From a virus: a stretch of 64,000 nt of DNA. Of this stretch, positions 3,619 to 19,673 are shown piece after piece. Positions within the stretch are counted from its first letter, which is position 1; each line of letters starts with the position of its first letter. The position numbers were made by a program, and so were the translations under genes. The notes under the pieces were generated by a model, which was given only the letters and a program-made list of their open reading frames with translations, did no database searches and had not been told where the DNA came from. The stretch is from IMG/VR virus record IMGVR_UViG_3300025684_000015, positions 33,887-97,886 of that record; one strand, written 5' to 3'.

Positions 3619-3620
3619 TT

Positions 3621-3697
3621 CCTCTTTTCATTTTATAAGTATATTATACAACACTTTTTAGTACTTGTAAACAAAAAAATGCATTTAATTTGCATTT
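3621..3697 (-). promoter_or_regulatory. Early promoter/stem-loop repeat, copy 1 (shortened stem)
   Basis: TTTACA-17-TATAAT followed by ATACTTATAAAATGAAAAGAGG leader shared with other copies. Confidence 0.8.
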
Positions 3698-4485
3698 ATT
3701 TTTATAAAATCTACATCAAGGACAGAACGAGCATTATCTTCTCTTCCGCCGCGATAGATTCCAAATTTGATGTAAGGCTTCTTGCCTTTTCTCATTACAA
3801 TCTTATCAGACTTAGCACTCCAGACTTCATCTCCATTTGTCACCTTAGTGACCATATTAAAATGATCTTTCTTCATATCTAGATTAATTGTAACGTCTAC
3901 CCATTTACCAATATGATCATGGACTATAAAGTTTCCCATTGTCTTCTCAGACTCTAACTCAATATGGTTTAAATAATAATCTTTTCCAGATGCATGTTGA
4001 GTGCGAACACGTAAACGATTTCCTTTATCTACAGATAAAATATAAGCAGGTTTACATGAACCCTTTTTGTCGCTTTTGTAACAATTATTATATACTTGCA
4101 AAATAGTGTTTATTGAATCAGTCCACTGGTTAGTCCATTCAGCAAATCTAATTCTATATTTAATTTCATAGCTTTTATTTGGATAAAGGTATTCCATATT
4201 GCCTTTATAGCCAGCAGTAAGTTCTATCCTTTCATGCCATTGATATCCACTACGCTTATTGTTATCTGCTCGGCATCCACCACGCTCACCAGCATTTACT
4301 TCAAATCTAAGAAATTCAATATCTTTTTCTTTTAGCATTGAGTATTTAGATTTGCCTTGAGAAGGACAACTCTGATAAAAATTATGACTCCAATCTTTAT
4401 CTTTTATTGCAAATGCTTGTGAACTGAAAAATCCAGCTGCACAACTCAATACCACAGTGTGGAATACTATTTCTGAATATTTCAT
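3685..4485 (-). CDS. Secreted polysaccharide lyase-like protein (beta-jelly-roll)
   Basis: Signal peptide ending AFA; ERIEL, ILQV and YIKFGIYR motifs typical of polysaccharide lyases. Confidence 0.6.
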   Translation of the reverse strand: MKYSEIVFHTVVLSCAAGFFSSQAFAIKDKDWSHNFYQSCPSQGKSKYSMLKEKDIEFLRFEVNAGERGGCRADNNKRSGYQWHERIELTAGYKGNMEYLYPNKSYEIKYRIRFAEWTNQWTDSINTILQVYNNCYKSDKKGSCKPAYILSVDKGNRLRVRTQHASGKDYYLNHIELESEKTMGNFIVHDHIGKWVDVTINLDMKKDHFNMVTKVTNGDEVWSAKSDKIVMRKGKKPYIKFGIYRGGREDNARSVLDVDFIKINAN

Positions 4486-4562
4486 CTTTTATCCTCAGGC
4501 CAGTAAAGAGCGAGACACCAAAGTAATATTAAACAAACTATTAAACTTGCTACAAATTCCAT
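4482..4562 (-). CDS. 26-aa single-TM micropeptide (MEFVASLIVCLILLWCLALYWPEDKR)
   Basis: Start overlaps upstream stop (TAATG); stop overlaps lyase ATG (ATGA). Confidence 0.5.
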   Translation of the reverse strand: MEFVASLIVCLILLWCLALYWPEDKR

Positions 4563-4765
4563 TAGTGCCTCGCATGATCTTGATCGGTGAATTGAGAAAC
4601 ATGATCAGGATCTGATTTATGTGAGAAGACAACAGTATCATTGTCGACATCAACATCACCGTACATACGATGATCATGAACCAGATGGATAAAGTCAGGT
4701 CTACCAAAAACCCTGACAGCAGCCAGATAATCATTATCATTTCGAAAACCAACAAAGTGTAGCAT
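4562..4765 (-). CDS. Hypothetical protein
   Basis: 67-aa ORF fitting the coupled operon; HFVGFR...AVRVFG.PDFIH. Confidence 0.6.
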   Translation of the reverse strand: MLHFVGFRNDNDYLAAVRVFGRPDFIHLVHDHRMYGDVDVDNDTVVFSHKSDPDHVSQFTDQDHARH

Positions 4766-4772
4766 TATAAAC

Positions 4773-4844
4773 CTATATAAACATCAAGATTGGAAGTGAT
4801 GCCATTGCAAACATAAAGATAATTCCAAGGATAATTTGAGACAT
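4773..4844 (-). CDS. 23-aa single-TM micropeptide (MSQIILGIIFMFAMASLPILMFI)
   Basis: TAATG overlap with upstream ORF, GGAGG upstream, almost wholly hydrophobic. Confidence 0.45.
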   Translation of the reverse strand: MSQIILGIIFMFAMASLPILMFI

Positions 4845-5110
4845 TACACTGCCTCCTGGATCATTGGTGAACCATCAAAGTTAGTACTCATGACAACACC
4901 TTGACACTCGATCCAACGAGCGGCTTCTTCAATATTTTGATAAGCATCTGACTCATCGGCATCAAATGTACCATCTTCCTTTTTGATTTCCCAAGAACCA
5001 CGAAAATCGCCAAGCATATCTTGACAAATATAACATTCCTGCTCAGATACAACATTAGTTGCTTTATAGAAACCTTCAGAAACTTTAACGATTTTTAACA
5101 TGATCAACAT
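4844..5110 (-). CDS. Hypothetical early protein
   Basis: First ORF behind promoter repeat copy 2. Confidence 0.6.
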   Translation of the reverse strand: MLIMLKIVKVSEGFYKATNVVSEQECYICQDMLGDFRGSWEIKKEDGTFDADESDAYQNIEEAARWIECQGVVMSTNFDGSPMIQEAV

Positions 5111-5224
5111 CCTCTTTTCATTTTATAAGTATATTATATCATAAAAAAGAACCTTTGTAAACAAAAAAATGCACTTAATTTGAAAAAAAGTGCATTTAGT
5201 TTATGTGTTATAACAATAACTTAG
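5111..5224 (-). promoter_or_regulatory. Early promoter/stem-loop repeat, copy 2
   Basis: AAATGCACTT...AAGTGCATTT hairpin, TTTACA-17-TATAAT, conserved leader, near-IHF site at 5211-5223. Confidence 0.85.
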
Positions 5225-5515
5225 TTATTTTTTAGAAAAAGAATTTACTAAACGGGCTTGTTTTGTTCCTGGAATCTCTAAAACTGTTTCATTTGAGATT
5301 ATATCAATGATGATATTTGTTACATCAATCTCTTTGCGAATCCAACCCATTTTTTCTACAAGTTTTTCTAATTCTTTTTGATAGTATTCAAGTTCTTGTT
5401 CTTTTCTTATTTTAGACTCAATTACATCAGATAAAAGAATAATTGTTTCAGTTTTACTTTCTTTTTCTTCTTCTTCTCTTATTCTTCTTTTCATGTATTC
5501 TTCATGACGTTCCAT
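5225..5515 (-). CDS. Hypothetical coiled-coil protein
   Basis: 96 aa, E/K-rich, GGAG RBS. Confidence 0.6.
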   Translation of the reverse strand: MERHEEYMKRRIREEEEKESKTETIILLSDVIESKIRKEQELEYYQKELEKLVEKMGWIRKEIDVTNIIIDIISNETVLEIPGTKQARLVNSFSKK

Positions 5516-5544
5516 TTATTATCTCCACCTAGCTCCATCACTCA

Positions 5545-6045
5545 TTAGTTCTTTTCCCATCTATAAAATAGATGATCGTCAATAGTACCTATATAAGTTT
5601 TTTGTTTATTCCACGCTGGATCAACGTTTTTACTGTGATAGTGAGTTGCACCATCAGTTGGATCAATATTAGAATTACTAATTGATAATGCGCTATTGGC
5701 TATTTTTTTAGCATGTTCATACGCAGTTTTATCTCGAATTCTATCACTTAATCCATCGCAATACCAAGAAAAATGACACTTGTGTTTAATTGGTACGTGC
5801 TTATTATGAGTCTCTTTCCACCATTTAGAATGATATCCTTGGGTTACTACACCACAAATTGTATTAGGATATCTATCATCTTTGACTCTATTTAAAGTTA
5901 CCATAGCAACAGCGATCTGCCCACTAGAAGATTGATTGCGCGATTCAAAATATATATTTTTAGCAAGACATTCGAATTCTTTACTAGTGTTTACTTCTGT
6001 TGCTCCTAAAGAAAATAACAATGTTGCAATAATTTCGCTTAACAT
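5545..6045 (-). CDS. Cell wall hydrolase (SleB/Hydrolase_2 family)
   Basis: CLAKNIYFESR, VA.VTLNRV..RYPNTICGVV, FSWYCDG, GATHYH. Confidence 0.9.
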   Translation of the reverse strand: MLSEIIATLLFSLGATEVNTSKEFECLAKNIYFESRNQSSSGQIAVAMVTLNRVKDDRYPNTICGVVTQGYHSKWWKETHNKHVPIKHKCHFSWYCDGLSDRIRDKTAYEHAKKIANSALSISNSNIDPTDGATHYHSKNVDPAWNKQKTYIGTIDDHLFYRWEKN

Positions 6046-6281
6046 TCATTATTCTCATCAGCATAAACAATATTTTTGATTGGCCCTGTGCCTACTTCAA
6101 ATACATGACTAGTTTGTGCGGTATAGATGTTGCCATCCATAATCGATTTAATTCGAATGGTATCACCATCGTTAAGCACTTCACCAATAATTTCTTCATG
6201 TGGTTGTACAACACTAACTGTGACAGAGCTATTATAATAATCCCACATATAAACTTTCATTCCTTTAGTAATGCGTTTCAT
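6039..6281 (-). CDS. Hypothetical protein
   Basis: 80-aa ORF coupled to both neighbours. Confidence 0.55.
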   Translation of the reverse strand: MKRITKGMKVYMWDYYNSSVTVSVVQPHEEIIGEVLNDGDTIRIKSIMDGNIYTAQTSHVFEVGTGPIKNIVYADENNEC

Positions 6282-6796
6282 TATGCAGCCTCCTTTCGCT
6301 TTTGGCGTCGTTCAGCTAATAGCTTTTGGCGTCGTTCAGCTATAGCTGGATTTACTAATCCCTGACGAAGATATCTGTAAATTGTTTGAAAACAATCTCC
6401 ATGACCACGATCATTTTTTGACTTATCACGTAGATATTTAGGCATCTTAGATTTATGTGTATATTGTACATAATGAGATACTTCATGCGCAACCAAACAC
6501 ATTAGAATATCTGAATTATCAGACACTTTGATTTGCCCAATAGTAGGATCATCATTAAAACGGGCGTATTCGCTATATACTTTATTTCCGAATTGCCAAC
6601 ATTCAAGATTGATCTTAATCATGCGATATCCAGCCCAGCTGCGGCCGTTCTTACGACGATAAACATCTAAATGCTTAACTGCAGTATGGACATCTTTAGT
6701 TGTCAACCCAAGTTCATATTGTTTTTTCTTGAGATGGCGCATACAGATTTTAACCATTTCAGCAACGGGATTATAAAGTTCTTTATCAATAGCCAT
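6281..6796 (-). CDS. SprT-like zinc metalloprotease-fold protein
   Basis: HEVSH (HExxH) plus downstream HG..F. Confidence 0.6.
   Translation of the reverse strand: MAIDKELYNPVAEMVKICMRHLKKKQYELGLTTKDVHTAVKHLDVYRRKNGRSWAGYRMIKINLECWQFGNKVYSEYARFNDDPTIGQIKVSDNSDILMCLVAHEVSHYVQYTHKSKMPKYLRDKSKNDRGHGDCFQTIYRYLRQGLVNPAIAERRQKLLAERRQKRKEAA
6298..6342. repeat. 21-bp direct repeat x2 (encodes AERRQK twice)
   Basis: GCTTTTGGCGTCGTTCAGCTA at 6298 and 6322. Confidence 0.85.
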
Positions 6797-6802
6797 TTAC
6801 AT

Positions 6803-6920
6803 TCCTTTTTTCATTTTATAAGTATATTCTACCATACTTTTTAGCAAATGTAAACCCCTAAAATGCACTTTTTTAAAATAAAATGCATTTTTTTATCTGA
6901 AACATAATCAATAACTTAGG
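6803..6920 (-). promoter_or_regulatory. Early promoter/stem-loop repeat, copy 3, with IHF-consensus site
   Basis: TTTACA...TAGAAT, AAATGCA hairpin, AATCAATAACTTA at 6906-6918. Confidence 0.8.
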
Positions 6921-6932
6921 ATAAATACTTAA

Positions 6933-7508
6933 ATGAATGATTATGTTATCCCTCTAAGTAAGCTATCTTACGATAAAGAAGCATGCTTAGAATTTTTTAA
7001 AACTTTAGATTTTGGGAATCGGTGGGATGATAGGCCTACTGGCAGGTATATTCGTGCAGAAAATCCTGATGGCTATTTAGAAGTTCCATGCATTAAACAA
7101 ATCAATAATCAACTACCATATAGCGTCAATTTTCAATTTATTAAGATTGTTGGAGATTGGACAATGCCTATTCACATTGATACATATAGGACAGCTGTAT
7201 TAATGATACCACTATCACCAGATCCAGCACCAACTTATTGGTATGAAGAACCTGACTATATAAAAAAATTACGATTGTCTGGAGATAGAGATGCTTATAT
7301 TAAAGCTTCAAGAAAATTAAAAATAGATCCGATTTACACACATATTCATGATGGTATACCTACTATTATTAATTCAGAATTGCCGCATGGTACTGATACA
7401 CAGAATGGAATTGATCGGCTTACCATACAAATAGGAATGGCCAATACTGATACTGGACCATTCCTATCTTGGGATGAAATTTTTGAAAAAGTAAAAGACT
7501 TAGTCTAA
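6933..7508 (+). CDS. 2OG-Fe(II) oxygenase-like (DSBH) protein
   Basis: HID...PHG...RLTIQI facial-triad pattern. Confidence 0.6.
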   Translation: MNDYVIPLSKLSYDKEACLEFFKTLDFGNRWDDRPTGRYIRAENPDGYLEVPCIKQINNQLPYSVNFQFIKIVGDWTMPIHIDTYRTAVLMIPLSPDPAPTYWYEEPDYIKKLRLSGDRDAYIKASRKLKIDPIYTHIHDGIPTIINSELPHGTDTQNGIDRLTIQIGMANTDTGPFLSWDEIFEKVKDLV

Positions 7509-7802
7509 TTACTCTACTTCGCCTTTAAATACCCATGTGCGAACAATACCATTTTCATCATTATAGGCTGTTCTTGCATTAGCTGCGTCTTGATCACCAC
7601 TTTCAGACTCTGCTTTATATGCTAACCAAATTTCTTCGGTTTCTGCATAGTTTGTCAAAGTTAAAACCAAACCATCTTCAGACATAGCGCGCTCACGAAC
7701 AATCTTATATTCTGATTGTGTGTGTAGAATCATGTCATTTGTTGGTTGCCAAAATGGTACATCAACGCTAGGACGAGTAAATGTCATAACCGTTTTATAC
7801 AT
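7509..7802 (-). CDS. Hypothetical protein, last gene of transporter island
   Basis: 97 aa, TAATG-coupled to dctP. Confidence 0.65.
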   Translation of the reverse strand: MYKTVMTFTRPSVDVPFWQPTNDMILHTQSEYKIVRERAMSEDGLVLTLTNYAETEEIWLAYKAESESGDQDAANARTAYNDENGIVRTWVFKGEVE

Positions 7803-8758
7803 TATGCTGCTCCTTTAATATCTGCAACTAGGCCATTCTCAAAGAATGACTCATATTGCGGATAAACTGATTTAAGAGCTGTAGAAAATCTTGCTCTTTC
7901 TTTTTCTGACATAACAACAGTATCAATGCCAAAAGCTTTTGCTTCTGTTTGAACTCTAACATTATCTGCCAGTGAATCTTCTCTTTCGATTTTAGCTGCT
8001 TCTAATGAAGCTTCTTTCCATGCTTGTTGATCATTAGCAGACATAGAATCCCATAGTTGTTTATTCATTACAATTGAAGTAAGGAATAATGAGTGTGAAG
8101 TGTCATTAATATATTTAGCTACTTCATGCTGCTGTCTAGCAAAGAATCGAGCATATGTGGTAGTACCAGCATCAATACGACCATCTTTCATTGCTTGATT
8201 AATTTCATCAACTAACATTTGAACTGGTTTAGCTTGCACTGCTTCAAACATAGATTGAGATACTGGGCTTTTGGAGCAACCAATAGAAAGATCATAGAAA
8301 TCTTCAAGTCTTTCTAGAGTCTTTGTTGAAGGAATAATCCTATATCCACCTGAATATGTAAAAGCTAAACCTTTTAAATTAGATTTTTTCTCGAGCCATG
8401 AGAACAGATTTTGACCAATTTTTCCATCGAGTACTTTTTCGGCATGGCCATGATCTTCGAATAAGAATGGAAGCCCTAGGGAAAACATGTTCTTTTCAAA
8501 CTTCCCTAGAGTTTCTACATATGTTGTAGCAATATCAATATTGCCAGAGTTAACTAAACTAACAACTTTTTCTCTATCACTAGAGTGAATAGATAAGTTA
8601 CTACCAGTTTCTTTATTCCATTCGGATAGACTTAAAACCCGTAGATCATATCTACCATCAGTGCTATCTTTGATTTTTGCACTAAATACTTTTGCTGCGC
8701 GCAAAAATACATTGAATGGTTCGTGTGCAATAACCCACGTAAGTTGTTTAGTTTCCAT
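7802..8758 (-). CDS. dctP: TRAP solute-binding protein DctP-like, no signal peptide
   Basis: LPFLFEDH.HA.KVLDG, GLAFTYSGGYR motifs; paralog of 14808-15749. Confidence 0.8.
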   Translation of the reverse strand: METKQLTWVIAHEPFNVFLRAAKVFSAKIKDSTDGRYDLRVLSLSEWNKETGSNLSIHSSDREKVVSLVNSGNIDIATTYVETLGKFEKNMFSLGLPFLFEDHGHAEKVLDGKIGQNLFSWLEKKSNLKGLAFTYSGGYRIIPSTKTLERLEDFYDLSIGCSKSPVSQSMFEAVQAKPVQMLVDEINQAMKDGRIDAGTTTYARFFARQQHEVAKYINDTSHSLFLTSIVMNKQLWDSMSANDQQAWKEASLEAAKIEREDSLADNVRVQTEAKAFGIDTVVMSEKERARFSTALKSVYPQYESFFENGLVADIKGAA

Positions 8759-8764
8759 TTTAGT

Positions 8765-9718
8765 TTACTCTCCGAAAATTTCTCTGTATCCTGGCTCTAA
8801 TAGTTTTCTATTAGCAATATACGCATTCTTTAATCCTTGCGAATTAAGTGCTGCTTTATCTATATTTATCATTCTTTTTTCGCGTTCTGCCTTAGCTTTT
8901 TCACTTTGTACGGCTTTTGCTAAATTAATTTCATACCATTTTACAATTTCTGGATCAGTACCTTTTGCTAAAAGGGCACCGACTGTAGACATTTGTAAAA
9001 TTCCTGGATATGTTTCATTAACAGCTTCAGTATTAGGCAATGCTGGTAGTCTTCCATTAGACATTACCGCAATATACTTAATATCACCACTATTATAGAA
9101 CGCAACTGTTGGTGGCATACCACCTACCCAAATATCAACTTCACCAGCGGCTACGTCTTTAATAGCTTCTGCTGATTTTCTATATTTTACAAAGTTGACT
9201 TTATCTTTTGAGATACCTTCAGCTTCTAAAATAAGATTTGTTGCAACAATCTGATTAGGGAATGTTGTTGTGATATTTAGTGGTTTATTTGAAGTGCGAA
9301 TCCATTCAACCAATGCGGCTAATGAATTAATAGGTGTGTCGTGCTTTACGGCGATCACAATACTAGAAGTGATCAAGCCAGAAGTAAATTCGAAATCATT
9401 CGCCCAATCGTAATCAACCAACTCTGGGTTGGTGACTTCACCCATTACATGACTAATGCTTGTAGTCAAAAGCACGTGATGGCCATCTGCTGGGTAAGAT
9501 TTAAGAAAATGTTTTGTTCCGATAATACCAGCGGCACCTGGTTTAAACTCATAGATTACTTCAACACCAAGTGCTTCTTCAATTGACATAAAGCCAGTTG
9601 CATGAAGAGATGTTGGAGAAGAAGGAACCGTAACGGTAATAGGACCTGTTGGTTCCCATGCATACACAGTCGTGTTTGCTAGCACAGCAATAACGAAAGT
9701 CATAATATATTTTAACAT
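8765..9718 (-). CDS. tctC: Tripartite tricarboxylate transporter substrate-binding protein (TctC/Bug)
   Basis: Signal peptide, WEPTGPITVTVP, E.KPGAAG.IG, RLPALPN. Confidence 0.85.
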   Translation of the reverse strand: MLKYIMTFVIAVLANTTVYAWEPTGPITVTVPSSPTSLHATGFMSIEEALGVEVIYEFKPGAAGIIGTKHFLKSYPADGHHVLLTTSISHVMGEVTNPELVDYDWANDFEFTSGLITSSIVIAVKHDTPINSLAALVEWIRTSNKPLNITTTFPNQIVATNLILEAEGISKDKVNFVKYRKSAEAIKDVAAGEVDIWVGGMPPTVAFYNSGDIKYIAVMSNGRLPALPNTEAVNETYPGILQMSTVGALLAKGTDPEIVKWYEINLAKAVQSEKAKAEREKRMINIDKAALNSQGLKNAYIANRKLLEPGYREIFGE

Positions 9719-9763
9719 AATATTTTTTTTTCCTTTTAATGGGATTTATTTGATTTATACGAT

Positions 9764-9771
9764 TATTTATA
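9764..9771 (-). promoter_or_regulatory. T4-type late promoter TATAAATA
   Basis: Exact motif in intergenic gap upstream of tctC. Confidence 0.7.
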
Positions 9772-9774
9772 TTT

Positions 9775-10500
9775 TTACTTATTTGTCATTGAGCACAATT
9801 TAAGAACATTCTCCCAAGTCTTAGGAACGTTAACAACCAAATGAATTGATCCATCTTCCCAAGAATGAGTTCTATGCGTTTTCATTGTATCAACGTAATA
9901 AGCCCGACCAGGAATAATATCCTGTTTTTGGCCAGATTGACTCCATTCAAAAGAATCACTATCACATGCTTTCGATAAGAAAGCTACGATACGAATAGTT
10001 TTTCTAGTAATAAGTGGATAGTCTTTATGCGGTGGGAAATACCCACCCGCATTTACTTTAACTAAGAAAGTTCTACCAAGTTTGTCAAATGGTTCCAACA
10101 ACTCATGGAGAGAAGTTAGAGCATGATATACGTCTGTCTTATGGTTGAAGTCTTGGTCAAGTAAAAACTCGTTTCCAGTCTTAATTCTAGATTGTGGGAT
10201 AGAAAGATTTTCCGAATGAGAACTTCCTTCTAATCCAACTAGAACAAGACCTTCTCTATTATTTGGTGCCCATGCTTTTTTCAAGTATGGTTCCCAATCG
10301 TTATCAAATAACGATAATTCTTTATTTAATTGATCTAAATTAATTCTTGGTTTTAATAGTTCGAATTCACCCATTGCTTGCAATTGTAGCTCGCACATAA
10401 GATCTTCTTGCGTGGGTGTAAACTTTTCTGGCTTACGAGAATACTTCTCAAACCAGTTACCAGTATTTTCACCATCACCTTTATTTTTGATTTCTGTCAT
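9775..10500 (-). CDS. Aspartyl/asparaginyl beta-hydroxylase-like 2OG-Fe(II) oxygenase
   Basis: GGYFPPHKD...PGRAYYVDT.KTH...HLVVNV. Confidence 0.65.
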   Translation of the reverse strand: MTEIKNKGDGENTGNWFEKYSRKPEKFTPTQEDLMCELQLQAMGEFELLKPRINLDQLNKELSLFDNDWEPYLKKAWAPNNREGLVLVGLEGSSHSENLSIPQSRIKTGNEFLLDQDFNHKTDVYHALTSLHELLEPFDKLGRTFLVKVNAGGYFPPHKDYPLITRKTIRIVAFLSKACDSDSFEWSQSGQKQDIIPGRAYYVDTMKTHRTHSWEDGSIHLVVNVPKTWENVLKLCSMTNK

Positions 10501-10532
10501 CGTAATCCCAATTCATCGCAAATAAAATTGAT

Positions 10533-11954
10533 CTAAACATTCTTTTTCATCCTGTACATATTAGCTGATATGATTGCCAATATACATAACCATATTCCTA
10601 TTGCTATATTACTATGTATAAAGATAGAAAAGTCCCCTTGAGAAATACTAAGAGATCTTCTAAAATATTCTTCAAGCATTGGACCTAGAATTAATCCTAA
10701 AATAAATGGGACAACATTAATATCTAATTTCATAAACAGATAACCGAGAGCAATAAAAGCACAAAGAATAATTAAATCATTTGAGTTATTATTTACTCCA
10801 TACGTTCCAATAAAACAAACAGAAATAATAATAGGATATAATATTGTGTATGGTATTTTAATTAAGCTTACCCATATTTTAATCAACGGATAATTTAAAA
10901 TAAGAAGAATAATATTTCCAAAGAAAATACTGTAAACTAAAGACCAAAATAAATCAGGATGGTTTTGAATTACTAATGGACCAGGAACAATTCCAAATAC
11001 AATCATGGCACCAAGAATCAAAGTCATTGCCATATTTTCTGGTAATCCAAGACTTAATAAAGGAATAAGACTGCCTTGAGCAGCAGCATTATTTGCAGCT
11101 TCTGGAGCAGCAACTCCTTCTATAACTCCGGTGCCTAAATTTTTATTAATATTTTTTTCAACAGTATAAGCAGCATATGTTGCTCCTGTTAGTCCACCAC
11201 CTGGAATAATACCAAGAAACCCACCAATAAGAGTTCCTCTCAATGCTGCGGGAACAAATTGTTTTAAATCTTCTTTTGTTGGAAGAATTGCTAAATTTTT
11301 AGTCTGTACAATAGACATAGTATTTAATGATAAATTTCGAAATACTTCGGCGAATGCAACCATTCCAATTGCAGCTGCAACAAAACTTATTCCATCATAT
11401 AGATCATCAATATTGAATACAAATCTTTCAAGTCCACTATTTAAATCAACACCAACAGTTCCTGTCAATATACCAACCATAACTGCCGCTAATCCAGTTA
11501 AAAGATTATCACTTAGAATAGATGTAACACCAACAAATGCTAAACATAATAATGCAGTATATTCAGCTGGACCAAATTTAAAAGCAAGGTCAGCTAATGG
11601 TGGAGAAATAATTGCCATAGCAATTACCATAATAATACCAGCAATAAAGGAAGAAATAGCTGATACCATAATGGCTTTTCCAGCTAATCCTTTCTTTGCT
11701 AATTTATGACCATCAATACAAGTCATAATAGCACTATTTTCGCCTGGTGTATTTAATAGAATCGCTGTAGTAGATCCACCATATTGAGATCCATAATAGA
11801 TTCCAGCTAACATAATAATACCAGAAATAGGATCCATTCCAAAAGTAATTGGCAATAATAATGCAATTGTTGTTGATGGACCGAGGCCAGGTAATACACC
11901 AACGGCAGTGCCAGCAAGACATCCAATTAATAAAAATATTAATTGCTCTACCAT
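10533..11954 (-). CDS. tctA: Tripartite tricarboxylate transporter permease TctA
   Basis: G.LPGLG, YGSQYGGS..AILLN.PG, GVAAPEAANNA; multi-TM. Confidence 0.95.
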   Translation of the reverse strand: MVEQLIFLLIGCLAGTAVGVLPGLGPSTTIALLLPITFGMDPISGIIMLAGIYYGSQYGGSTTAILLNTPGENSAIMTCIDGHKLAKKGLAGKAIMVSAISSFIAGIIMVIAMAIISPPLADLAFKFGPAEYTALLCLAFVGVTSILSDNLLTGLAAVMVGILTGTVGVDLNSGLERFVFNIDDLYDGISFVAAAIGMVAFAEVFRNLSLNTMSIVQTKNLAILPTKEDLKQFVPAALRGTLIGGFLGIIPGGGLTGATYAAYTVEKNINKNLGTGVIEGVAAPEAANNAAAQGSLIPLLSLGLPENMAMTLILGAMIVFGIVPGPLVIQNHPDLFWSLVYSIFFGNIILLILNYPLIKIWVSLIKIPYTILYPIIISVCFIGTYGVNNNSNDLIILCAFIALGYLFMKLDINVVPFILGLILGPMLEEYFRRSLSISQGDFSIFIHSNIAIGIWLCILAIISANMYRMKKNV

Positions 11955-12364
11955 AATGGTAATGCTTTAAGTACTGTGAGTTTTAATATAATTGCTAAGA
12001 CCGAAGAAACGGCTGTTGAGATAATACATGATTTCCATGTAAAGTCTTTATGAAGAGTTGAAACTAACGGAACTAAAACCACAATAGAAGCTAAAATACC
12101 AAAATACTTAAACGCAAGAATTCCTAAAAATACAGCACCCAGCATTTTAATAAGTACAAATATTTCTAAATGTAATACTTCATTATCATTTTGTGATCGA
12201 AATGCGTATACTGTTGAAATAATAATTAAAATAATAGAAATAATAAATGGGTACATTCCTGGACCCATATTTGCAAGTGTTCCTAATTGCATATTAGATG
12301 ACATAATTAAAAATATAAATCCAATCATAAAAAGTAATATAGAAGTATATTGTTTTTTAGTCAT
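11948..12364 (-). CDS. tctB: Tripartite tricarboxylate transporter small permease TctB
   Basis: Four TM helices, MGPG.YP motif, C-terminal LP, adjacent to tctA. Confidence 0.85.
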   Translation of the reverse strand: MTKKQYTSILLFMIGFIFLIMSSNMQLGTLANMGPGMYPFIISIILIIISTVYAFRSQNDNEVLHLEIFVLIKMLGAVFLGILAFKYFGILASIVVLVPLVSTLHKDFTWKSCIISTAVSSVLAIILKLTVLKALPLW

Positions 12365-13383
12365 TATTCATATCCACAAAAATCATTATCTTCAACATAG
12401 TATTGTTTAATAAACTCTGTATCAAATGGTTTATAAAAGGATTGTAAAGAATTTGATTCAGATACAATCATATCAGGTTTATTTGTAAAGAATAATTTAC
12501 CCATAGACTGCCATTTTCTTTTGTAAATATGATAGTCTTTATCCTTTGTATAATTATATATTAGATCTTTATAGAGTGATTTATCTGGAGATTTATTTAA
12601 GATTGACCATCTTTGAATATCGTGAGAAGAGTAAAATGTGTCAAATTCTTTATGATAACCCAATCTAGGCTTATATTTTTCTTTAGCGTTTAACCATCTA
12701 AAATTGAAATTAAACCACCAACTAAAATCTTCAATAGTATCAATTGGCCGTGGAGAACTTTTACCAGTTTTTAACATAGCATTGATAAATGCTTCAGCCG
12801 CAATTTTATCAAATCCCAACTCAGCACAAACATTATATAGATTAGTTTTTGTTGCTGGTTTAGTAGTCCAAGATTTATCAATTCGTGAAAGCATCATGCC
12901 ACTAATAATTTGATCTGCATGTTCTGCTTGAATAGTAATACCATCATTATCTTCAGATAAATGTTTTTCAATTGATAAAAGTTTAAAGTTTGGTAAAATA
13001 TAAGTGTAATAAAATTTAGGATTCTCTTTTATAGAGTCACGATTCATTACAATTGTTATTTGATCTAAATTAATATTAGACTTAAGAAATGATATAACCA
13101 TTAAGGTTGAATCAATTCCGCCACTCCATTGTAAATATAAATGTTTACCTGTATCAACTAATTCTAAACAACGACTTTGTAATACATCTTCAAATGTTCC
13201 AACAGCTTTAACTGTAGGAATTTTATATTCTTCTGGCATATATTGCTTTAATGGTGTTACTAATGTTTCTGTTCTATCTGACATCCAACTAAAACGCATA
13301 ATTTTGCGCATAGCTCTTTCGTATAATACCATATCAGGAGTATCTAGAGCACGTAATAATATTGTTGAAGCATGTAGAATCAA
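12364..13383 (-). CDS. PP-loop ATP pyrophosphatase (asparagine-synthetase/ANH-like), paralog B
   Basis: WSGGIDST PP-loop; HADQI; shares DF.WW..FN and Q.WS..N with paralog A. Confidence 0.7.
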   Translation of the reverse strand: MILHASTILLRALDTPDMVLYERAMRKIMRFSWMSDRTETLVTPLKQYMPEEYKIPTVKAVGTFEDVLQSRCLELVDTGKHLYLQWSGGIDSTLMVISFLKSNINLDQITIVMNRDSIKENPKFYYTYILPNFKLLSIEKHLSEDNDGITIQAEHADQIISGMMLSRIDKSWTTKPATKTNLYNVCAELGFDKIAAEAFINAMLKTGKSSPRPIDTIEDFSWWFNFNFRWLNAKEKYKPRLGYHKEFDTFYSSHDIQRWSILNKSPDKSLYKDLIYNYTKDKDYHIYKRKWQSMGKLFFTNKPDMIVSESNSLQSFYKPFDTEFIKQYYVEDNDFCGYE

Positions 13384-13988
13384 TTGACGTATACCATATT
13401 ATCAATTAGACGTTTTAGTTTTGGTAATTCTTGCTGACTACTAATGTCATTTACTTTTTGAATTAATTTATAAACTGAACCATCAATTTTAGCTTTACCA
13501 TAAAAATAAGAATCATTTTCCATATCAATAAATTTTTTAGCCAATTCAAAAGATAATCCTGCTTGACTTGCAAAACATTCTATCATTTTATCATTATATA
13601 AAATATAGCGATCAGTATATCTACTCATAAATTTTTCGGCCATATCATCTATTAAAATAAGACATTCTTTTTTTATATTTAATATCTTTTTTGTCTTTTT
13701 AAATCTTATTGTTTTATGAGATACTAGTAAATCTACTTTTTGAATTTGATAGAATTCATCGATATCACTAGGTTTGGCGACAGAACCTTCACCAGGTCTT
13801 ACCATTCCTACGTTTTGTTGTAGTAAAATTTGATCTATATTTGGATTAAAAGTTGATGTTGTTCGTACTCGCATTACACTTGTATTTAATGCGTACTCAC
13901 AAAGTTTATTTGCTATATCATAATTAGAAGCTTCGCAGTAGATCAGGTGTTCTTCCTGATCTACCACAAAGATATATGTATTAATCAT
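13380..13988 (-). CDS. Hypothetical partner of PP-loop protein B
   Basis: ATGA-coupled to PP-loop gene; N-terminus resembles 17940-18575. Confidence 0.6.
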   Translation of the reverse strand: MINTYIFVVDQEEHLIYCEASNYDIANKLCEYALNTSVMRVRTTSTFNPNIDQILLQQNVGMVRPGEGSVAKPSDIDEFYQIQKVDLLVSHKTIRFKKTKKILNIKKECLILIDDMAEKFMSRYTDRYILYNDKMIECFASQAGLSFELAKKFIDMENDSYFYGKAKIDGSVYKLIQKVNDISSQQELPKLKRLIDNMVYVN

Positions 13989-14779
13989 TTTTTGCGAATT
14001 CTAAAAGTAACTACTTTGCGATCAGCTTCTGCAAAAATTGAAGCTGGTCTAGTTGTGTGTAATCTACGAGAATCATAACAAATAATACGACCTGGCTTAG
14101 GACTTACTACTTTACAAGTATCGCCCCAGTCAATTGGAAAACCTCGTTGTTGGCCACCTTTTTGATATCTTTGGTCGTCACCAGTTTCTGTATGATTGCT
14201 GGTGTAGAACATATTATCCGCAAACCATGTTGGATACCATACAGGGTTAGCAACATACATACATGTATATGTACGGTCATTCGATTCATCGGGTTGATCT
14301 CGATGAATTCCATGAGTATGCTTATAGTGTTCATTTGGCTGAGCCGCGGCGTACACTCTCCAACCCTGATCCATATTGGGATCTAATGTTGGTGGTGCAG
14401 TGTATTTATCTTTTATATACTCATCTGGAGAATTTTCTGCTACTGTGCCTTCGGGCTTACCAGCAATTTCAAATTCACCATCAAATTGCATATTGATACA
14501 TTGCCACAATTTATAAATTGGATCATGAGCTTTTAGACTTTCTTCGTCAGAAGCAAAATGAGCTCTTGGCATGAATAAATGGCGGGGCTCTTCCAGCCGC
14601 TTGGGGTAATCATTGGCTTTCCATTTACCAGGAACATATTCATGAATTTCATGAAAGTTGCTAGTTTTCTGCCTTTTCCAAGCGGCTGTCCAAGTTTGTT
14701 CTAATAGGTATTCCCATACTGAATGTCTAAGATCAGCTGGAACAGCGTCATCGACAACTCTTACTTCATAATCAATCAT
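13985..14779 (-). CDS. 2OG-Fe(II) oxygenase (prolyl-hydroxylase-like)
   Basis: IHRD...SPKPGRII.YDSR.LH..RP...RKVVTFR. Confidence 0.8.
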   Translation of the reverse strand: MIDYEVRVVDDAVPADLRHSVWEYLLEQTWTAAWKRQKTSNFHEIHEYVPGKWKANDYPKRLEEPRHLFMPRAHFASDEESLKAHDPIYKLWQCINMQFDGEFEIAGKPEGTVAENSPDEYIKDKYTAPPTLDPNMDQGWRVYAAAQPNEHYKHTHGIHRDQPDESNDRTYTCMYVANPVWYPTWFADNMFYTSNHTETGDDQRYQKGGQQRGFPIDWGDTCKVVSPKPGRIICYDSRRLHTTRPASIFAEADRKVVTFRIRKK

Positions 14780-14807
14780 TCAAATCACATCCTATTTTTA
14801 TTTTAGC

Positions 14808-15749
14808 TTAAGACTTTTGAATTTTCTCAATGATATTATCACTGAAAACATTCATGTACTTTGTGTACAGATGAGCAGTAGCTGCTTTGAACTTAGCAGT
14901 TTCTGATTCAGCCATCTTAACAATTTTAATGCCTTGGGTCTTACATTGATCTACGATACCATCGATAGAAGCAACTGATTCACGACGCTCTAAACGAGCA
15001 GCATTCAATGCAGCGTCTTTCAACACGGCTTGAGTCTTTTCATCTAGACCAGCGTAGAATTCTTTACCAACAATAATTGAGGTAAGGAAAAGTGAATGTG
15101 CAGTGTCATTAACTGTACCAAATGCTTCACCCTGCTTAAGAGGAAGAATACGTACATATGTAGACTCACCACCATCAATAACACCATTTGCATGTGCTTC
15201 ATTCATTTCTTCAAGTTCAACTGAATCAACAACATTTGCGCCTAGAGCTTTAAATGTGTCTACAGCAACAGGAGACTTAGAAGTACGAATGCTCATACCT
15301 TCAAAAGCAGCGACGGTATCTAATTCTTTTTCAGACGGGATAACACGGTATCCACCTGAATATGTAAAGGCCAAACCTTGTACAGGTGATTTTGCCTTAA
15401 GTCCATCCAATAGAGACTGGCCGATAGAGCCTTCTAGAACTTTATCTGCATGGTCATGATCGCGGAACAAGAAAGGCATGTCAAGTGCATACATATCTTT
15501 ATTCCAATCACCAAGCCATGTAGTATACATCTGCGATGCTTCTACAACGCCATCTTCCATTAACTGGAGAAGATCTTGTTTAGTGACTTTTTCGCCACCA
15601 TTATACTTATTTGAGTACTCAGTCAAAGAAAGAATTTCGATGTCTAAAGCACCATTTGTTTGCTCAAGTACTTGCGCTTTGAATCTTTCTGCAGCGCGCA
15701 GAAACAAATCAATAGGCTCATGAGCAATAACCCAACGAATGGTTTTCAT
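14808..15749 (-). CDS. dctP: TRAP solute-binding protein DctP, no signal peptide
   Basis: MPFLFRDHDHA.KVLEG, GGYR, G.SIRT, FKALGA, GVIDGGE. Confidence 0.85.
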   Translation of the reverse strand: MKTIRWVIAHEPIDLFLRAAERFKAQVLEQTNGALDIEILSLTEYSNKYNGGEKVTKQDLLQLMEDGVVEASQMYTTWLGDWNKDMYALDMPFLFRDHDHADKVLEGSIGQSLLDGLKAKSPVQGLAFTYSGGYRVIPSEKELDTVAAFEGMSIRTSKSPVAVDTFKALGANVVDSVELEEMNEAHANGVIDGGESTYVRILPLKQGEAFGTVNDTAHSLFLTSIIVGKEFYAGLDEKTQAVLKDAALNAARLERRESVASIDGIVDQCKTQGIKIVKMAESETAKFKAATAHLYTKYMNVFSDNIIEKIQKS

Positions 15750-15801
15750 TGTTAAACTCCTAATGTTAACACGTGTTTACGTTTTGGTTTGCAACCAACT
15801 T

Positions 15802-15809
15802 TATTTATA
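15802..15809 (-). promoter_or_regulatory. T4-type late promoter TATAAATA
   Basis: Exact motif upstream of dctP (AGGAG RBS follows). Confidence 0.7.
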
Positions 15810-15813
15810 TGTT

Positions 15814-16743
15814 TTATTTCTTAATATTGTCGTTATGCTTAATTAAAAGCTTTTCAACGATCGCAATATTTTCTAAATAGAATGCACCAATATCTTTACC
15901 ATCAAATACCGGTGAATTCATGTCTGATAGTCCAAATACTTTATCTTTACCAAGATTTTTTGTAGCAGCATTTAATACATATCCAAGCTTCAATCTTTTT
16001 AGTGTTGGCATTTCTGAAGAAGCAACAGTAATATTAAATACTTGTGGAGCAGATACTCCCTGTTCAGCTAATGTTGCTACTTCTGGAAGAAGTGGATGGC
16101 GGGAAGTACACGAAGCCGCGGCGGCTTGAATATTTGGATTTTTAGTTTTCATTTGGATATAGTTTTTAGCTTTTTCTACTACCATATTGACTGATCCATC
16201 TCCTGCCATTAACACCAATCCTTCATAATTAGATTTAAAAATTACGTAATTGATTTCGGTTTTAGCTGCTTCACCAATTTGGAGAGATGTCAAATGCGTA
16301 GCATTACCAATACCTACACCACCAACGGTCATGACATCTTTACCAGCATTTCGCATAGCCTCAATTGAATCTCCTAGATTCGAAATTACAATCCAGCATG
16401 CAGATCCTAAAGCATGAATAGGAACATATTTTTCACGATCTAATTTACCAGATCTAGTATGTTCTACATATTTTGGTGCGATAATAGATAATCTATTTTG
16501 TGGAGATGCATCCATTTGTTTTACAGCAATAATTTGCTGACCACCTGGTTTATTTTCAAGATGAAATTGAAATTGATCTTGAATCTTATTAGCTTCTTCG
16601 ACAATTGCTAAATACGCGGGTGTTCCGCCATGAGACGCTGAATACGGACTTTGAATATAGATGTCTTCTTTTGCAAAAGCGTGTGTAGACCCTAGTGTAA
16701 ACGCAACTGTCGCGCTAACCATTAAAGTTTTTAAGTTTTTCAT
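15814..16743 (-). CDS. tctC: TctC/Bug-like periplasmic binding protein (divergent)
   Basis: Signal peptide (AFA), ENKPGG, G.GNATHL, RHPLLPEVATLAEQG. Confidence 0.8.
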   Translation of the reverse strand: MKNLKTLMVSATVAFTLGSTHAFAKEDIYIQSPYSASHGGTPAYLAIVEEANKIQDQFQFHLENKPGGQQIIAVKQMDASPQNRLSIIAPKYVEHTRSGKLDREKYVPIHALGSACWIVISNLGDSIEAMRNAGKDVMTVGGVGIGNATHLTSLQIGEAAKTEINYVIFKSNYEGLVLMAGDGSVNMVVEKAKNYIQMKTKNPNIQAAAASCTSRHPLLPEVATLAEQGVSAPQVFNITVASSEMPTLKRLKLGYVLNAATKNLGKDKVFGLSDMNSPVFDGKDIGAFYLENIAIVEKLLIKHNDNIKK

Positions 16744-17980
16744 AAAAATACTCTTCTATTCCTTCGTTGTTAAAATATTTCATTTGATAATTTTCATCTA
16801 AACCAAACATATTATCTAGTTCATCGTTTATCGCAATTCGATGCCGATTCACAATGATTTGTTTAGATGGTATTTTCATTTTGTACCAATAGTACCAATC
16901 ATTGGCATCTAAACTATGTATATAGTCTTTAGCTGCCATTTTATAACGACCCTGTGTTGTGCCTAAGATTTTTTGGCCGTTATTATTATTTACCATAGAC
17001 CATAATTGAAAGTCTACAGCGTTAAACCAATTAATTTGTTTTTCGTATATTTTACTACGATCAACACCTGTTGATTGAATGCTTCCAGCCCTTAGCGCAC
17101 AATGCATATATTTTGGATTAAAGATAATCCACCAAAAGAAATCATGTAAGGTAGTTACTTTGCACTTTGCTGTTTCAATATTTCTAACCATTTTGTTATA
17201 ATACATTTCGCCAAATGCTTTATCAAGAGATGATTTTTCGGTATTAGAATATTTAAAATATCTACCATCTAAACAAAGATTAAAATACTTAATAATTGCT
17301 TGTTTATATTCGCTATAATGAACTTCTGGGTTGTCAATATTATCTTTTAACGCATATGCTTCTTTTGTATAATCAAAATAATAAGGAATTGACGGATATA
17401 ATTTAGTACCTAATTCAGTACCAAATAGAGCATCACCTTGATCACCTACAATAACTGTATAGTTTTGTTCCACAACAGTACGTCTCATATCAAATTCTTT
17501 ACTGTTATGAATCTTAAGTTTATCTTTAATAAATCTATTATAGAAGAATTCATTCTCAATAATTGAGTCAAAACTCATTGAAATTGTAATATTATCTAAT
17601 TGTTTATCTGTAAGATTTTTAATTAATGCCGCAACAATTGCTGTTGAATCTATACCACCAGAATATAGAATAAGAAATTGTTCATCTGTATTATCAATTC
17701 TTTTTGCGATATTTAAAGCTGTTTCATCACTAATTTGCGCAAATGATTTATTAAAGTCTTTTGATAAATCTGGCATATCATAACCAGGCGGTAATACCAA
17801 ATCATCACCCCATGGAGTATCCCACTCTCCATCTCTTGGAGAATATGAATTATACCCAAATGCTAATGAGATATTATAAAAAAACTTAGCTCCATCGTTT
17901 TGAAAGTTATATTTTTTCATAACTTTACGATGGTAAAATTTAAAAGGTGTATAATGTATTAGAAAAAAACGGTTTTGCAT
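16715..17980 (-). CDS. PP-loop ATP pyrophosphatase (asparagine-synthetase/ANH-like), paralog A
   Basis: YSGGIDST and GDQGDALFG motifs of the AS-B synthetase domain; no glutaminase domain; start uncertain. Confidence 0.75.
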   Translation of the reverse strand: MQNRFFLIHYTPFKFYHRKVMKKYNFQNDGAKFFYNISLAFGYNSYSPRDGEWDTPWGDDLVLPPGYDMPDLSKDFNKSFAQISDETALNIAKRIDNTDEQFLILYSGGIDSTAIVAALIKNLTDKQLDNITISMSFDSIIENEFFYNRFIKDKLKIHNSKEFDMRRTVVEQNYTVIVGDQGDALFGTELGTKLYPSIPYYFDYTKEAYALKDNIDNPEVHYSEYKQAIIKYFNLCLDGRYFKYSNTEKSSLDKAFGEMYYNKMVRNIETAKCKVTTLHDFFWWIIFNPKYMHCALRAGSIQSTGVDRSKIYEKQINWFNAVDFQLWSMVNNNNGQKILGTTQGRYKMAAKDYIHSLDANDWYYWYKMKIPSKQIIVNRHRIAINDELDNMFGLDENYQMKYFNNEGIEEYFYEKLKNFNG

Positions 17981-18575
17981 ATCGACTCAAATTCTCATAA
18001 AATTTTCTTTTTCGTAGGTTGCTTGTTTTAGATTTACTAAAGGCAACCATGATGTTGTCATATAATTCGTCAACATCTTTTGAATAATAAATTAGCTCGT
18101 AAATTGCTTCTTTAAATCCATTCTCAAAGTCTTTGTGACCACCATCAGATGCATGATAACCCATATCTTTATATGTTTCAATTCCCTTTGAATCTACAAA
18201 AGAAAAAATAGATTCGTACGATGATGGAAGTTCCATTTCAGTTTTTATAGTAGATTTTATAATTACAAACGTCATGCGAATATAATCTAAATGAGACTCA
18301 AAGATGTCTTGTGGAGTGTTCTGCTGAGGACCCAAATCTACATAAGAATCTTGTGGTTTAATTACTAGATATGGATATGGAGAAGACTGGCGGTATCCCT
18401 TTGGGTTACCTAGTGTCCAATTAGTACATACGCTATTATCAATTTCAGGCAATGTGACTGGAATTATGTTACACAATATTTTAGAGGTAAGTACTGTGGC
18501 TGTCTCGTATAGAGAGTGTACATCTTGATCGATAATTAAAAATCGTTCAATAGTATTTGAATATAATCCATGCAT
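17940..18575 (-). CDS. Hypothetical partner of PP-loop protein A
   Basis: Adjoins/overlaps PP-loop gene; FLIIDQDVHSLY resembles FVVDQEEHLIY of 13380-13988. Confidence 0.6.
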   Translation of the reverse strand: MHGLYSNTIERFLIIDQDVHSLYETATVLTSKILCNIIPVTLPEIDNSVCTNWTLGNPKGYRQSSPYPYLVIKPQDSYVDLGPQQNTPQDIFESHLDYIRMTFVIIKSTIKTEMELPSSYESIFSFVDSKGIETYKDMGYHASDGGHKDFENGFKEAIYELIYYSKDVDELYDNIMVAFSKSKTSNLRKRKFYENLSRYAKPFFSNTLYTF

Positions 18576-18602
18576 AATATAATATAACCTAAACGTGATT
18601 AA

Positions 18603-19058
18603 TCACATCTCTTTTATCACACCAATGTGATTATCTTGTTCTGTGCCAGAAATGGTTTGGAATCCATTCTGTAATGCCCAATCTAATTTACTTATTTTCA
18701 TCCAACCAAACATTTTTAGATAATTTGACCAATGTTTTTCATAAGCTTCTTCTAAAAGAAGAGCGCCTAATCCCTGATGTCGCCATTCTTTACGAATATT
18801 TATAGTACGAAAACGAATGGTAGATATATCCCACTCATATAATTGAGTAACTCCTATAATCCCATCAAAGTCTACTTCAGGATGTCGATCATATAGCCCA
18901 TAACATTTGGATATAGGATTATCTATACTAGAACGAAATGGCCCTAATTGGCTAACCAGTTGTCTATAGTTTTTATTGGGATCATTGAAGTGATCTACTT
19001 CTTTCCAATATTCTACAATTTGATCAAAGGAGATCTCTTCAACTTCAATTCCATCCAT
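18603..19058 (-). CDS. GNAT family acetyltransferase
   Basis: WRHQGLGALLL acetyl-CoA binding motif A; NGF near C-terminus. Confidence 0.75.
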   Translation of the reverse strand: MDGIEVEEISFDQIVEYWKEVDHFNDPNKNYRQLVSQLGPFRSSIDNPISKCYGLYDRHPEVDFDGIIGVTQLYEWDISTIRFRTINIRKEWRHQGLGALLLEEAYEKHWSNYLKMFGWMKISKLDWALQNGFQTISGTEQDNHIGVIKEM

Positions 19059-19403
19059 TTACGTTTGAGTACCTTTATTTGCTAAAACGTTAGTACTAAA
19101 TTTATCACCAGATGTAATTACACATGTGGTACCACGAGTTTTATTTACTACTATAAATGTCCATGTTAATGTATCATAATTAATCCACAATGAATGAAAA
19201 AGACCTTCACCAGTCGATGTTTCACTAGGTGCTACAAATATAATTTCTTCATCATATTTATTTTTTAAATTTTCTACAATATCATCTGTTTTTCCACAAA
19301 ATATTGGTAGTTGCATTGTGCTCACCCGAGGAGTAGCATCATTAGCAAAAACTAAAGTAGAAGCACAAACGAGTAAAGTAAACATTATTACATATCTTTT
19401 CAT
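19059..19403 (-). CDS. Secreted hypothetical protein
   Basis: Signal peptide, CG...KY.EE...TWT...TC pattern. Confidence 0.65.
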   Translation of the reverse strand: MKRYVIMFTLLVCASTLVFANDATPRVSTMQLPIFCGKTDDIVENLKNKYDEEIIFVAPSETSTGEGLFHSLWINYDTLTWTFIVVNKTRGTTCVITSGDKFSTNVLANKGTQT

Positions 19404-19419
19404 AATGATACTTCCTCTT

Positions 19420-19668
19420 AAAAAAACGAATGGTAGGTTATTCTGTTACTAGGAAACCTACCGAAACCCTATCCGACTATGCTGCTAGAGCGTAATCTTG
19501 AGGAGCAAAGTTATCGTTTGCATTTACTTTTGTGATTCTCCGCTGCCTTCACGTATCTGTCGATCCTATTTCGCCCCCATCATAAGCACACTCAGTAAAT
19601 GTGTTTATGGTGGAGGCGGTGGGTACTGCCCCCACGTCCAGCCTACATCCATCCAGTTTCACTGAATC
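19420..19668 (-). ncRNA. ssrA: Two-piece (circularly permuted) tmRNA, alphaproteobacterial type
   Basis: Acceptor piece ends ...GTGGG-GGCAGTA-CCCAC-CGCCTCCACCA (CCA at 19610-19608); 29-nt hairpin spacer; coding piece starts GGGGGCGAAATAGGATCGAC at 19578; G3.U70 pair; tag ANDNFAPQDYALAA* at 19521-19477; outer ends approximate. Confidence 0.93.
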
Positions 19669-19673
19669 ATTTT

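Follow-up and report, generated by a model that had tools for sequence, protein, structure and literature searches.

Leaderless DctP-fold proteins of a T4-like phage as probable cytoplasmic ligand binders linked to asparagine-synthetase-type ligases

IMG/VR record IMGVR_UViG_3300025684_000015 is a viral sequence of 97,886 bp, estimated to be ~57% complete, of which we analysed bases 33,887-97,886; this stretch of 64,000 nucleotides is referred to as the window herein. Two open reading frames (ORFs) in the window, P0001 and P0002, encode proteins resembling DctP, the substrate-binding protein of TRAP (tripartite ATP-independent periplasmic) transporters. We found that both proteins lack an export signal, that they retain the DctP fold and a set of conserved pocket residues, that they belong to a single viral clade, and that members of this clade are linked to genes for PP-loop ligases of the asparagine synthetase (AsnB) type. 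We therefore consider that P0001 and P0002 are probably cytoplasmic DctP-fold ligand binders that serve an AsnB-type pathway forming an amide or lactam, and not TRAP transporter subunits. The two genes are as follows:

7802-8758, minus strand: DctP-like protein 1 (P0001), 318 amino acids, Gly at the Arg position, without a signal peptide; PF03480, E = 1.3e-46
14808-15749, minus strand: DctP-like protein 2 (P0002), 313 amino acids, Arg pair R135/R155 kept, without a signal peptide; PF03480, E = 2.4e-44

Both DctP-like ORFs open at the earliest start codon that follows a stop. An in-frame TAA lies two codons upstream of P0001 (8765-8767) and nine codons upstream of P0002 (15777-15779), and therefore no leader could be encoded with any start codon. 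The N-termini of P0001 and P0002, METKQLTWVIAHEP and MKTIRWVIAHEP, fall in the first beta strand of the AlphaFold2 (AF2) model (E2-8). An initial annotation, made from the sequence, had described the DctP ORFs as beginning at the mature first strand without a signal peptide; this description holds, and the two in-frame stops exclude an upstream in-frame signal peptide. It had also assigned normal signal peptides to the two TctC proteins encoded directly upstream, and their N-termini confirm this, as both open with typical signal peptides (MLKYIMTFVIAVLANTTVYA/WEP and MKNLKTLMVSATVAFTLGSTHAFA/KED). Signal-peptide calls were made here by a criterion of N-terminal length and hydrophobicity. The two exported proteins are:

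8765-9718, minus strand: TctC exported binding protein 1 (P0003), 317 amino acids, directly upstream of DctP-like 1; PF03401, E = 5.7e-26, 92 bits; signal peptide
15814-16743, minus strand: TctC-like exported binding protein 2 (P0004), 309 amino acids, directly upstream of DctP-like 2; signal-peptide-like N-terminus; weak Pfam TctC match (E = 1.6e-5, 25 bits, under the 27-bit cut-off)

As export by an N-terminal signal is impossible, P0001 and P0002 are expected to stay in the cytoplasm. An ordinary TRAP binder might nevertheless reach the periplasm by a missed start, by read-through or by leaderless export, and work there with DctQM of the host, which may encode these subunits. The stop codon TAA of the first TctC gene (8765-8767) and the start of DctP-like gene 1 (8758) share a frame and lie two codons apart, such that read-through at 8758-8767 would yield a signal-bearing, exported TctC-DctP fusion. 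The shared frame is probably due to chance, because the other TctC/DctP pair is not in frame. In addition, each of the two ORFs is closed upstream by an in-frame stop, a search for longer, fused forms of the DctP-like protein found none (weak evidence), and a leader is absent from all 161 viral copies described below while bacterial relatives keep theirs. We consider export by such a route highly improbable.

To place these proteins among their relatives, 5.8 billion proteins were searched, which returned 1,749 relatives of the window DctP-like proteins; the best 120 of these are nearly all 310-318 amino acids long and have N-termini like those of the window proteins. Locus scans with single sequences gave no matches, whereas alignment-based scans matched 432 and 392 stretches of IMG/VR, as well as 64 loci from bacterial genomes or metagenome-assembled genomes (MAGs), mostly from Bdellovibrionota, Elusimicrobia and Polyangia. 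When the N-terminus was scored on the longest possible ORF at every locus, a signal-like N-terminus was found in none of 161 viral ORFs versus 46 of 75 ORFs in bacterial MAG loci. A signal-bearing example is the Bacteriovorax protein P0279, encoded on a 1.8-Mb contig, which opens with MRLMILAVFSLFSIASLQA. A FastTree phylogeny of 222 sequences, thinned at 75% identity, placed all viral sequences and both window proteins in one 93-leaf clade (support 98), scored as leaderless throughout bar two long upstream extensions that are probably false. The sister group of this clade consists of signal-bearing Bdellovibrionota sequences. P0001 and P0002 fall in different subclades and share 40% identity, and so appear to be old paralogues. 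Judged from these sequences, the DctP-like proteins should be cytoplasmic across the viral clade. A tblastn search of the deposited phage genomes in INPHARED found no close homologue, returning only matches below 30% identity.

The bacterial sequences closest to the viral clade form a signal-bearing 'WVLAHEP' subfamily of DctP in Bdellovibrionota, Elusimicrobia and their relatives, which shares 40-50% identity and the same motifs with the phage proteins and is sister to them. It differs in that signal peptides are present (46/75) and a PP-loop gene is a neighbour in only 2 of 46 cases. One example of this subfamily (L102) lies apart from any DctQM gene, and some such genomes encode DctM elsewhere. 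On a 445-kb Elusimicrobia MAG contig (L130), seven DctP matches of the same subfamily occur within 15 kb (2797-17985); several are preceded by signal-like or Ala-rich N-terminal stretches, and a DctM match is found on another contig.

DctP proteins of TRAP systems work with the membrane subunits DctQ and DctM. Neither the window nor the full record of 97,886 bp (57% complete) contains a match to DctM (PF06808) or DctQ (PF04290), and no DctM was found in five 100%-complete related phage genomes. The statement of the initial annotation that the window holds no DctQ/M partner was thus borne out and extends to the rest of the available genome. These results support the conclusion that P0001 and P0002 are not TRAP transporter subunits.

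The fold itself is that of the TRAP binders. P0001 and P0002 score 159.7 and 152.2 bits, respectively, against PF03480 (cut-off 23.4), and the window DctP-like proteins score above the cut-off of NCBIfam TRAP_S1 and below that of TIGR00787 dctP (175). The AF2 model of P0002 (predicted local distance difference test score, pLDDT, 93.6) has the full two-lobe TRAP binding-protein fold with two long hinge strands, and matches solved TRAP binders, including 4p47, 4n8y and SiaP, with template modelling (TM) scores of 0.85-0.88 over its whole length (Foldseek E = 3e-26). R155 of P0002, in the motif GMSIRT, aligns with the Arg of KIRT/KIRV in 4p47 and 4n8y; we take this position to be equivalent to the carboxylate-binding Arg-147 of SiaP. 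In the viral set, 144 of 161 copies have an Arg here. The corresponding Arg is conserved in 96.8% of the TRAP binder family, where it sets affinity and carboxylate selectivity (PMC4646407). Compared with the DctP TRAP binders (PF03480; SiaP of Haemophilus influenzae, 4p47, 4n8y and IseP, 8t9t), P0002 has the same fold and keeps both the selectivity Arg and a second Arg on the hinge strand (PMC4646407), but the phage proteins have no signal peptide and no DctQM, carry motifs of their own, include one copy without the Arg, and usually neighbour an AsnB-type ligase.

Among 109 non-redundant viral members that carry the Arg, seven residues never vary: H10, E11, S131, R155, E195, R200 and H218. P0001 differs from P0002 in the pocket by R155G, E195T and S196T, its G160 (motif DLSIGC) being aligned with R155, as the initial annotation had noted. 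S196T is found in all Arg-less viral members, P0001 included, and most of them also show S159N and loss of H100, while scaffold residues are kept. Co-changes at otherwise fixed positions on a retained scaffold look like a re-tuned pocket rather than decay. The earlier suggestion that the two copies have diverged in specificity is supported by the three substitutions in P0001 and by the similar co-changes in its Arg-less relatives.

The clade has invariant motifs of its own (WVxAHEP, DHxH and FTYSGG), and 66 columns are invariant across 23 sequences at 40-91% identity. Such conservation is unusually strong for a binder, and DHxH is not present in the solved relatives 4p47 and 4n8y, which raises the question of whether the clade-specific residues H10, E11, D97, H98 and H100 make up a catalytic or metal site for a pathway step, with the binding-protein fold serving as the scaffold of an enzyme. 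However, the same residues are kept in the signal-bearing, presumably periplasmic bacterial relatives, and in both overall fold and Arg pair the proteins resemble ordinary binders. An enzymatic role is, in our view, quite unlikely. We know of no catalytic precedent in the DctP family.

The initial annotation had proposed that these proteins are repurposed cytoplasmic carriers. The cytoplasmic carrier fits our data, but that proposal missed the neighbour that recurs beside these genes, an AsnB-type PP-loop ligase. Two such genes are found near the window DctP-like genes:

16715-17980, minus strand: PP-loop ATP pyrophosphatase (ligase 1, P0275), 421 amino acids, putative AsnB-type domain by VIA-align, without a glutaminase domain; SGGIDS motif at residues 107-112
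12364-13383, minus strand: second PP-loop protein (ligase 2, P0276), 339 amino acids, distant paralogue of P0275 in the same BLAST cluster; SGGIDS motif

Of the 161 viral DctP-like copies, 105 have a PP-loop ORF no more than two genes away, as do 56 of the 69 non-redundant Arg-type copies that have room on both sides. The two genes are typically separated by 15-90 bp on the same strand. Homologues of P0275 directly adjoin DctP-like genes in related phages, and a P0276-type gene is usually directly downstream of the DctP-like gene in other phages. The association is also seen in bacteria, where a PP-loop neighbour was present at 12 of 29 leaderless MAG loci versus 2 of 46 signal-bearing ones (Fisher p = 1e-4), and both of the latter are doubtful signal calls. 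Full-length Asn_synthase genes of ~600 amino acids adjoin the members of another leaderless group, from Polyangia, Planctomycetota and Elusimicrobia. At one such Planctomycetota MAG locus (L134, ~10000-15562), a leaderless DctP-like gene and a 627-aa Asn_synthase-like gene are followed by a permease of an ABC importer (BPD_transp_1) and an ABC ATPase, a bacterial operon that joins the binder/ligase pair to another type of transporter.

The assignment of the phage ligases to the AsnB type comes mainly from structural comparison. The P0275 model (pLDDT 72.9) matched TsnB9 best by VIA-align (Z = 13.7), followed by beta-lactam synthetase (12.4), human ASNS (12.3), carbapenam synthetase (10.7) and AsnB (9.0), while generic PP-loop enzymes scored Z ≤ 8. 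Foldseek with the same model gave E values of 4e-3 or worse only, and the phage PP-loop proteins matched Pfam Asn_synthase at E = 0.034, below cut-off. The structural matches to P0275 begin at residues 119-208 of the full-length enzymes. Only ~80-100 residues stand before the PP-loop in P0275 and P0276, and neither a Cys2 nor a Pfam match to a glutaminase domain is present. Like AsnB, beta-lactam synthetase, carbapenam synthetase and TsnB9, the phage ligases carry the PP-loop motif, and the P0275 model has the synthetase-domain fold of these enzymes (Z 9-13.7), but at 339-421 amino acids the phage proteins are without the N-terminal glutaminase domain and fall below Pfam cut-offs.

In AsnB-type enzymes, adenylation of a carboxylate is followed by formation of a C-N bond, giving an amide or lactam. 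In the mechanism that we propose, the Arg-bearing P0002 would bind an organic acid through its conserved Arg pair, and would either hold the acid for the adjacent ligase or hand it on, acting as a helper of the pathway and not as an essential subunit of the enzyme. The acid may be imported by the phage's own tripartite tricarboxylate transporter (TTT) system, trapped in the cytoplasm and converted. The Arg-less P0001, with its remodelled pocket, probably binds a different and perhaps non-carboxylate ligand.

Alternatively, the proteins might act as free sponges in the cytoplasm, sequestering a host metabolite or signal to starve a pathway or blunt a defence, apart from the enzymes encoded nearby. 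The intact binding fold, the conserved pocket and the cytoplasmic location would all suit a sponge. Many ligase loci have no DctP-like gene, such that both can function apart, and some leaderless copies have no ligase nearby. A sponge would leave unexplained why so large a share of Arg-type copies (the 56 of 69 above) lie within two genes of an AsnB-type ligase across differing contexts, and why full-length AsnB-like genes stand beside leaderless bacterial members. Given this constant neighbour, a pathway helper is more likely than a free sponge, which we regard as unlikely.

Several observations weigh against a binder that serves the ligase. The link between the two is drawn from gene neighbourhood, and is weak in the opposite direction: a DctP-like gene was found within 6 kb of 27 of 64 viral ligase loci (21 of 50, or 42%, where there was room). 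This one-sided linkage suggests that the binder depends on the ligase pathway and not the reverse. About one-fifth of the Arg-type copies and most Arg-less copies have no directly adjacent PP-loop gene, and P0001 itself is five genes from the nearest ligase in the window. Some leaderless Bdellovibrio MAG copies adjoin a membrane protein that looks, by eye, like a major facilitator superfamily (MFS) transporter. With regard to import, TctA and TctB were found in none of the first 80 viral loci and in none of the five 100%-complete related genomes (165-174 kb); this rarity among relatives implies that the import step is special to a few phages. Finally, TATAAATA boxes in the window suggest late expression, which would also fit a virion-related role. 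A complex prediction for P0275 and P0002, made with their alignments, gave a score of 0.01 and bears neither way. To our knowledge, no AsnB-type enzyme uses a separate binding protein.

The box, which we take to be the T4 late-promoter consensus, and a ribosome-binding site precede DctP-like gene 2, as had been proposed:

15802-15809, minus strand: TATAAATA box, 53 nt upstream of the DctP-like 2 start (15749); consensus match only
15757-15761, minus strand: AGGAG ribosome-binding site, 7 nt before the DctP-like 2 ATG, read from the sequence

Both elements are present, though the number of TATAAATA boxes in the window is at chance level (11 observed versus 10.6 expected). As we read the ORF list, however, 8 of the 11 occupy short spacers that immediately precede ORFs of the same orientation. 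A promoter and terminator scan of 7000-20000 did no better than shuffled sequences. The spacers upstream of 15749 and 9718 show no folding beyond that of shuffled sequences (z = +0.43 and -0.62) and contain no Rfam family.

The late box upstream of 14808-15749 is one reason to consider a virion-associated or maturation protein, made late, that would decorate the particle or, together with the ligase, modify a structural protein such as a fibre. Another is that a large group of related phages has the pair placed between genes for tail fibres and virion proteins, beside radical S-adenosylmethionine (radical-SAM) and tail-fibre-assembly PHROG genes. However, the DctP-like protein has no structural PHROG match and no N- or C-terminal domain beyond the binding fold, and the fibre context is not constant, as other phage groups have the pair among replication genes or beside DUF2061 or TctC. 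The initial annotation had offered a virion component as one of its readings; with no structural match, no attachment domain and a gene that travels with an enzyme, the late boxes alone are insufficient to sustain it, and we judge such a role improbable, about as much so as an enzymatic one.

The proposed import step draws on genes that share an island with P0001 and P0002. Two TTT membrane subunits are encoded there:

10533-11954, minus strand: TctA, large TTT membrane subunit; PF01970, E = 1.2e-140, 469 bits
11948-12364, minus strand: TctB, small TTT membrane subunit; PF07331, E = 9.7e-10, 39 bits

TctA, TctB and an exported TctC are thus encoded together, a complete TctABC set by its genes. 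Because the binder/ligase pair shares the island with the exported TctC binders and TctAB, import of the acid by the phage TTT system is possible. The nearest named relatives of TctA are from Burkholderiales, at ~50% identity, and metagenomic relatives share 56-92%; for several of the latter, the longest contigs agree in length with those of DctP-like relatives and may be the same contigs. At one other locus (L145), ORFs that cluster with the window TctB and TctA lie directly upstream of a P0001-like gene. Members of the TctC-like family of P0004 occur within three genes of 43 of the 161 viral DctP-like ORFs; the N-terminus is hydrophobic in 51 of this family's 58 members. Arg-less, P0001-like copies typically occur in the order DctP-like gene, ~240-aa ORF, TctC-like gene, ligase.

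Taken further, these genes could form a phage line for import, capture and conversion. TctC, with TctAB of the phage or host, would import the acid; a P0002-type protein would trap it and so make uptake one-way; AsnB-type ligases would amidate or cyclise it; and the Arg-less paralogue would bind the product, which is free of the carboxylate. We regard this complete scheme as doubtful, albeit possible. If true, the use of a binder at the inner face of a secondary transporter would amount to a new logic for this class of protein.

One review covering TRAP and TTT systems regards their solute-binding proteins as extracytoplasmic, in the case of TRAP by definition (PMC5812351). In beta-proteobacteria, orphan TctC ('Bug') binders far outnumber adjacent membrane partners, or lack them (PMC5812351). 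The window likewise has two TctC-type genes, but the Bug proteins are exported and belong to another family, whereas the orphan binders described here are cytoplasmic. In the literature on TTT and TRAP transporters in phages, on DUF2061, and on TRAP with asparagine synthase, we found no description of leaderless phage DctP proteins. What is newly set out here is the single leaderless viral clade with its signal-bearing sister group, the association in bacteria of ligase neighbours with the lack of a leader, the one-sided reliance of binder on ligase, and an Arg-less paralogue class with a TctC and TctAB context.

A whole clade, present on several hundred viral contigs, has given up export yet kept its ligand pocket, and its companions are asparagine-synthetase-type ligases of a family not described before. 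This points to a small-molecule (or peptide) pathway, encoded by phages and widespread among aquatic ones, and would be a new intracellular use of the binding-protein fold. For studies of auxiliary metabolic genes, the name 'TRAP-type C4-dicarboxylate transport system substrate-binding protein' that is now assigned automatically to these phage genes is misleading. Since the proteins are soluble and well predicted, ligand screening or structures could reveal the chemistry directly.

The window (G+C ~35%) has PHROG matches to major head, portal, sheath and terminase proteins, a family-B DNA polymerase and helicases, and we therefore assign it to a T4-like myovirus. The stretch 7700-16800 is kept at ≥99% identity in marine metagenomes from several studies (2016-2024), and the island is real, recurring DNA. 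RNA-library contigs map onto both DctP-like genes, a weak hint that these are transcribed; the parts of the island without such cover are not thereby indicated to be silent. On the minus strand, the island begins with a weak GNAT-like ORF, a 211-aa ORF, ligase 1, TctC-like 2 and DctP-like 2, continues with a 2-oxoglutarate (2OG)-oxygenase-like ORF, a 202-aa ORF, ligase 2, TctB and TctA, and ends with a 241-aa ORF, TctC 1 and DctP-like 1. Its remaining ORFs are:

13985-14779, minus strand: 2OG-Fe(II) oxygenase-like protein, its gene immediately downstream of DctP-like 2; PF13640, E = 2e-4, below cut-off
9775-10500, minus strand: 241-aa protein, family unassigned; without a Pfam, NCBIfam or PHROG match
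13380-13988, minus strand: 202-aa protein, directly upstream of ligase 2; without a family match
17940-18575, minus strand: 211-aa protein, directly upstream of ligase 1; without a family match

BLASTP found no mutual similarity between the 202-aa and 211-aa proteins upstream of the two ligases, and no similarity was found between the 241-aa protein and the ~240-aa protein beside P0001-like genes elsewhere. The island is flanked by a cell-wall hydrolase gene (PF07486, E = 2.5e-23; 5545-6045, minus strand) and by the weak GNAT acetyltransferase match (E = 8e-5, below cut-off; 18603-19058, minus strand). One DNA metagenome contig (run X7) joins position 8208 to 12217, skipping 4,008 bases that span part of DctP-like 1, TctC, the 241-aa ORF, TctA and part of TctB. 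With only 20 letters on one side, this junction hints weakly at a variant from which the TTT block is missing.

A short way upstream of the island, a permuted transfer-messenger RNA (tmRNA) of alphaproteobacterial type was strongly matched at 19432-19700 on the minus strand (Rfam RF01849, 102.6 bits, E = 1.4e-27; also RF04321), although ARAGORN called no tRNA or tmRNA. Such a permuted tmRNA on a phage is a hint of an alphaproteobacterial host, but the closest TctA relatives with names come from Burkholderiales.

Beyond the window, the surroundings of the binder/ligase pair vary by phage group and include a DUF2061 membrane protein, TctC-like binders, radical-SAM and fibre genes, and replication genes. 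In a freshwater-type phage group, represented by L009 (6322-12415) and ~35 similar loci, the pair sits amid fibre and virion genes, with a radical-SAM gene and a ~100-aa ORF before it and a gene that matches a PHROG of tail-fibre assembly after it. In a Bdellovibrio MAG (L087, 8141-10951), a leaderless member without a PP-loop neighbour follows a hydrophobic 415-aa protein that is MFS-like by eye and a 204-aa ORF.

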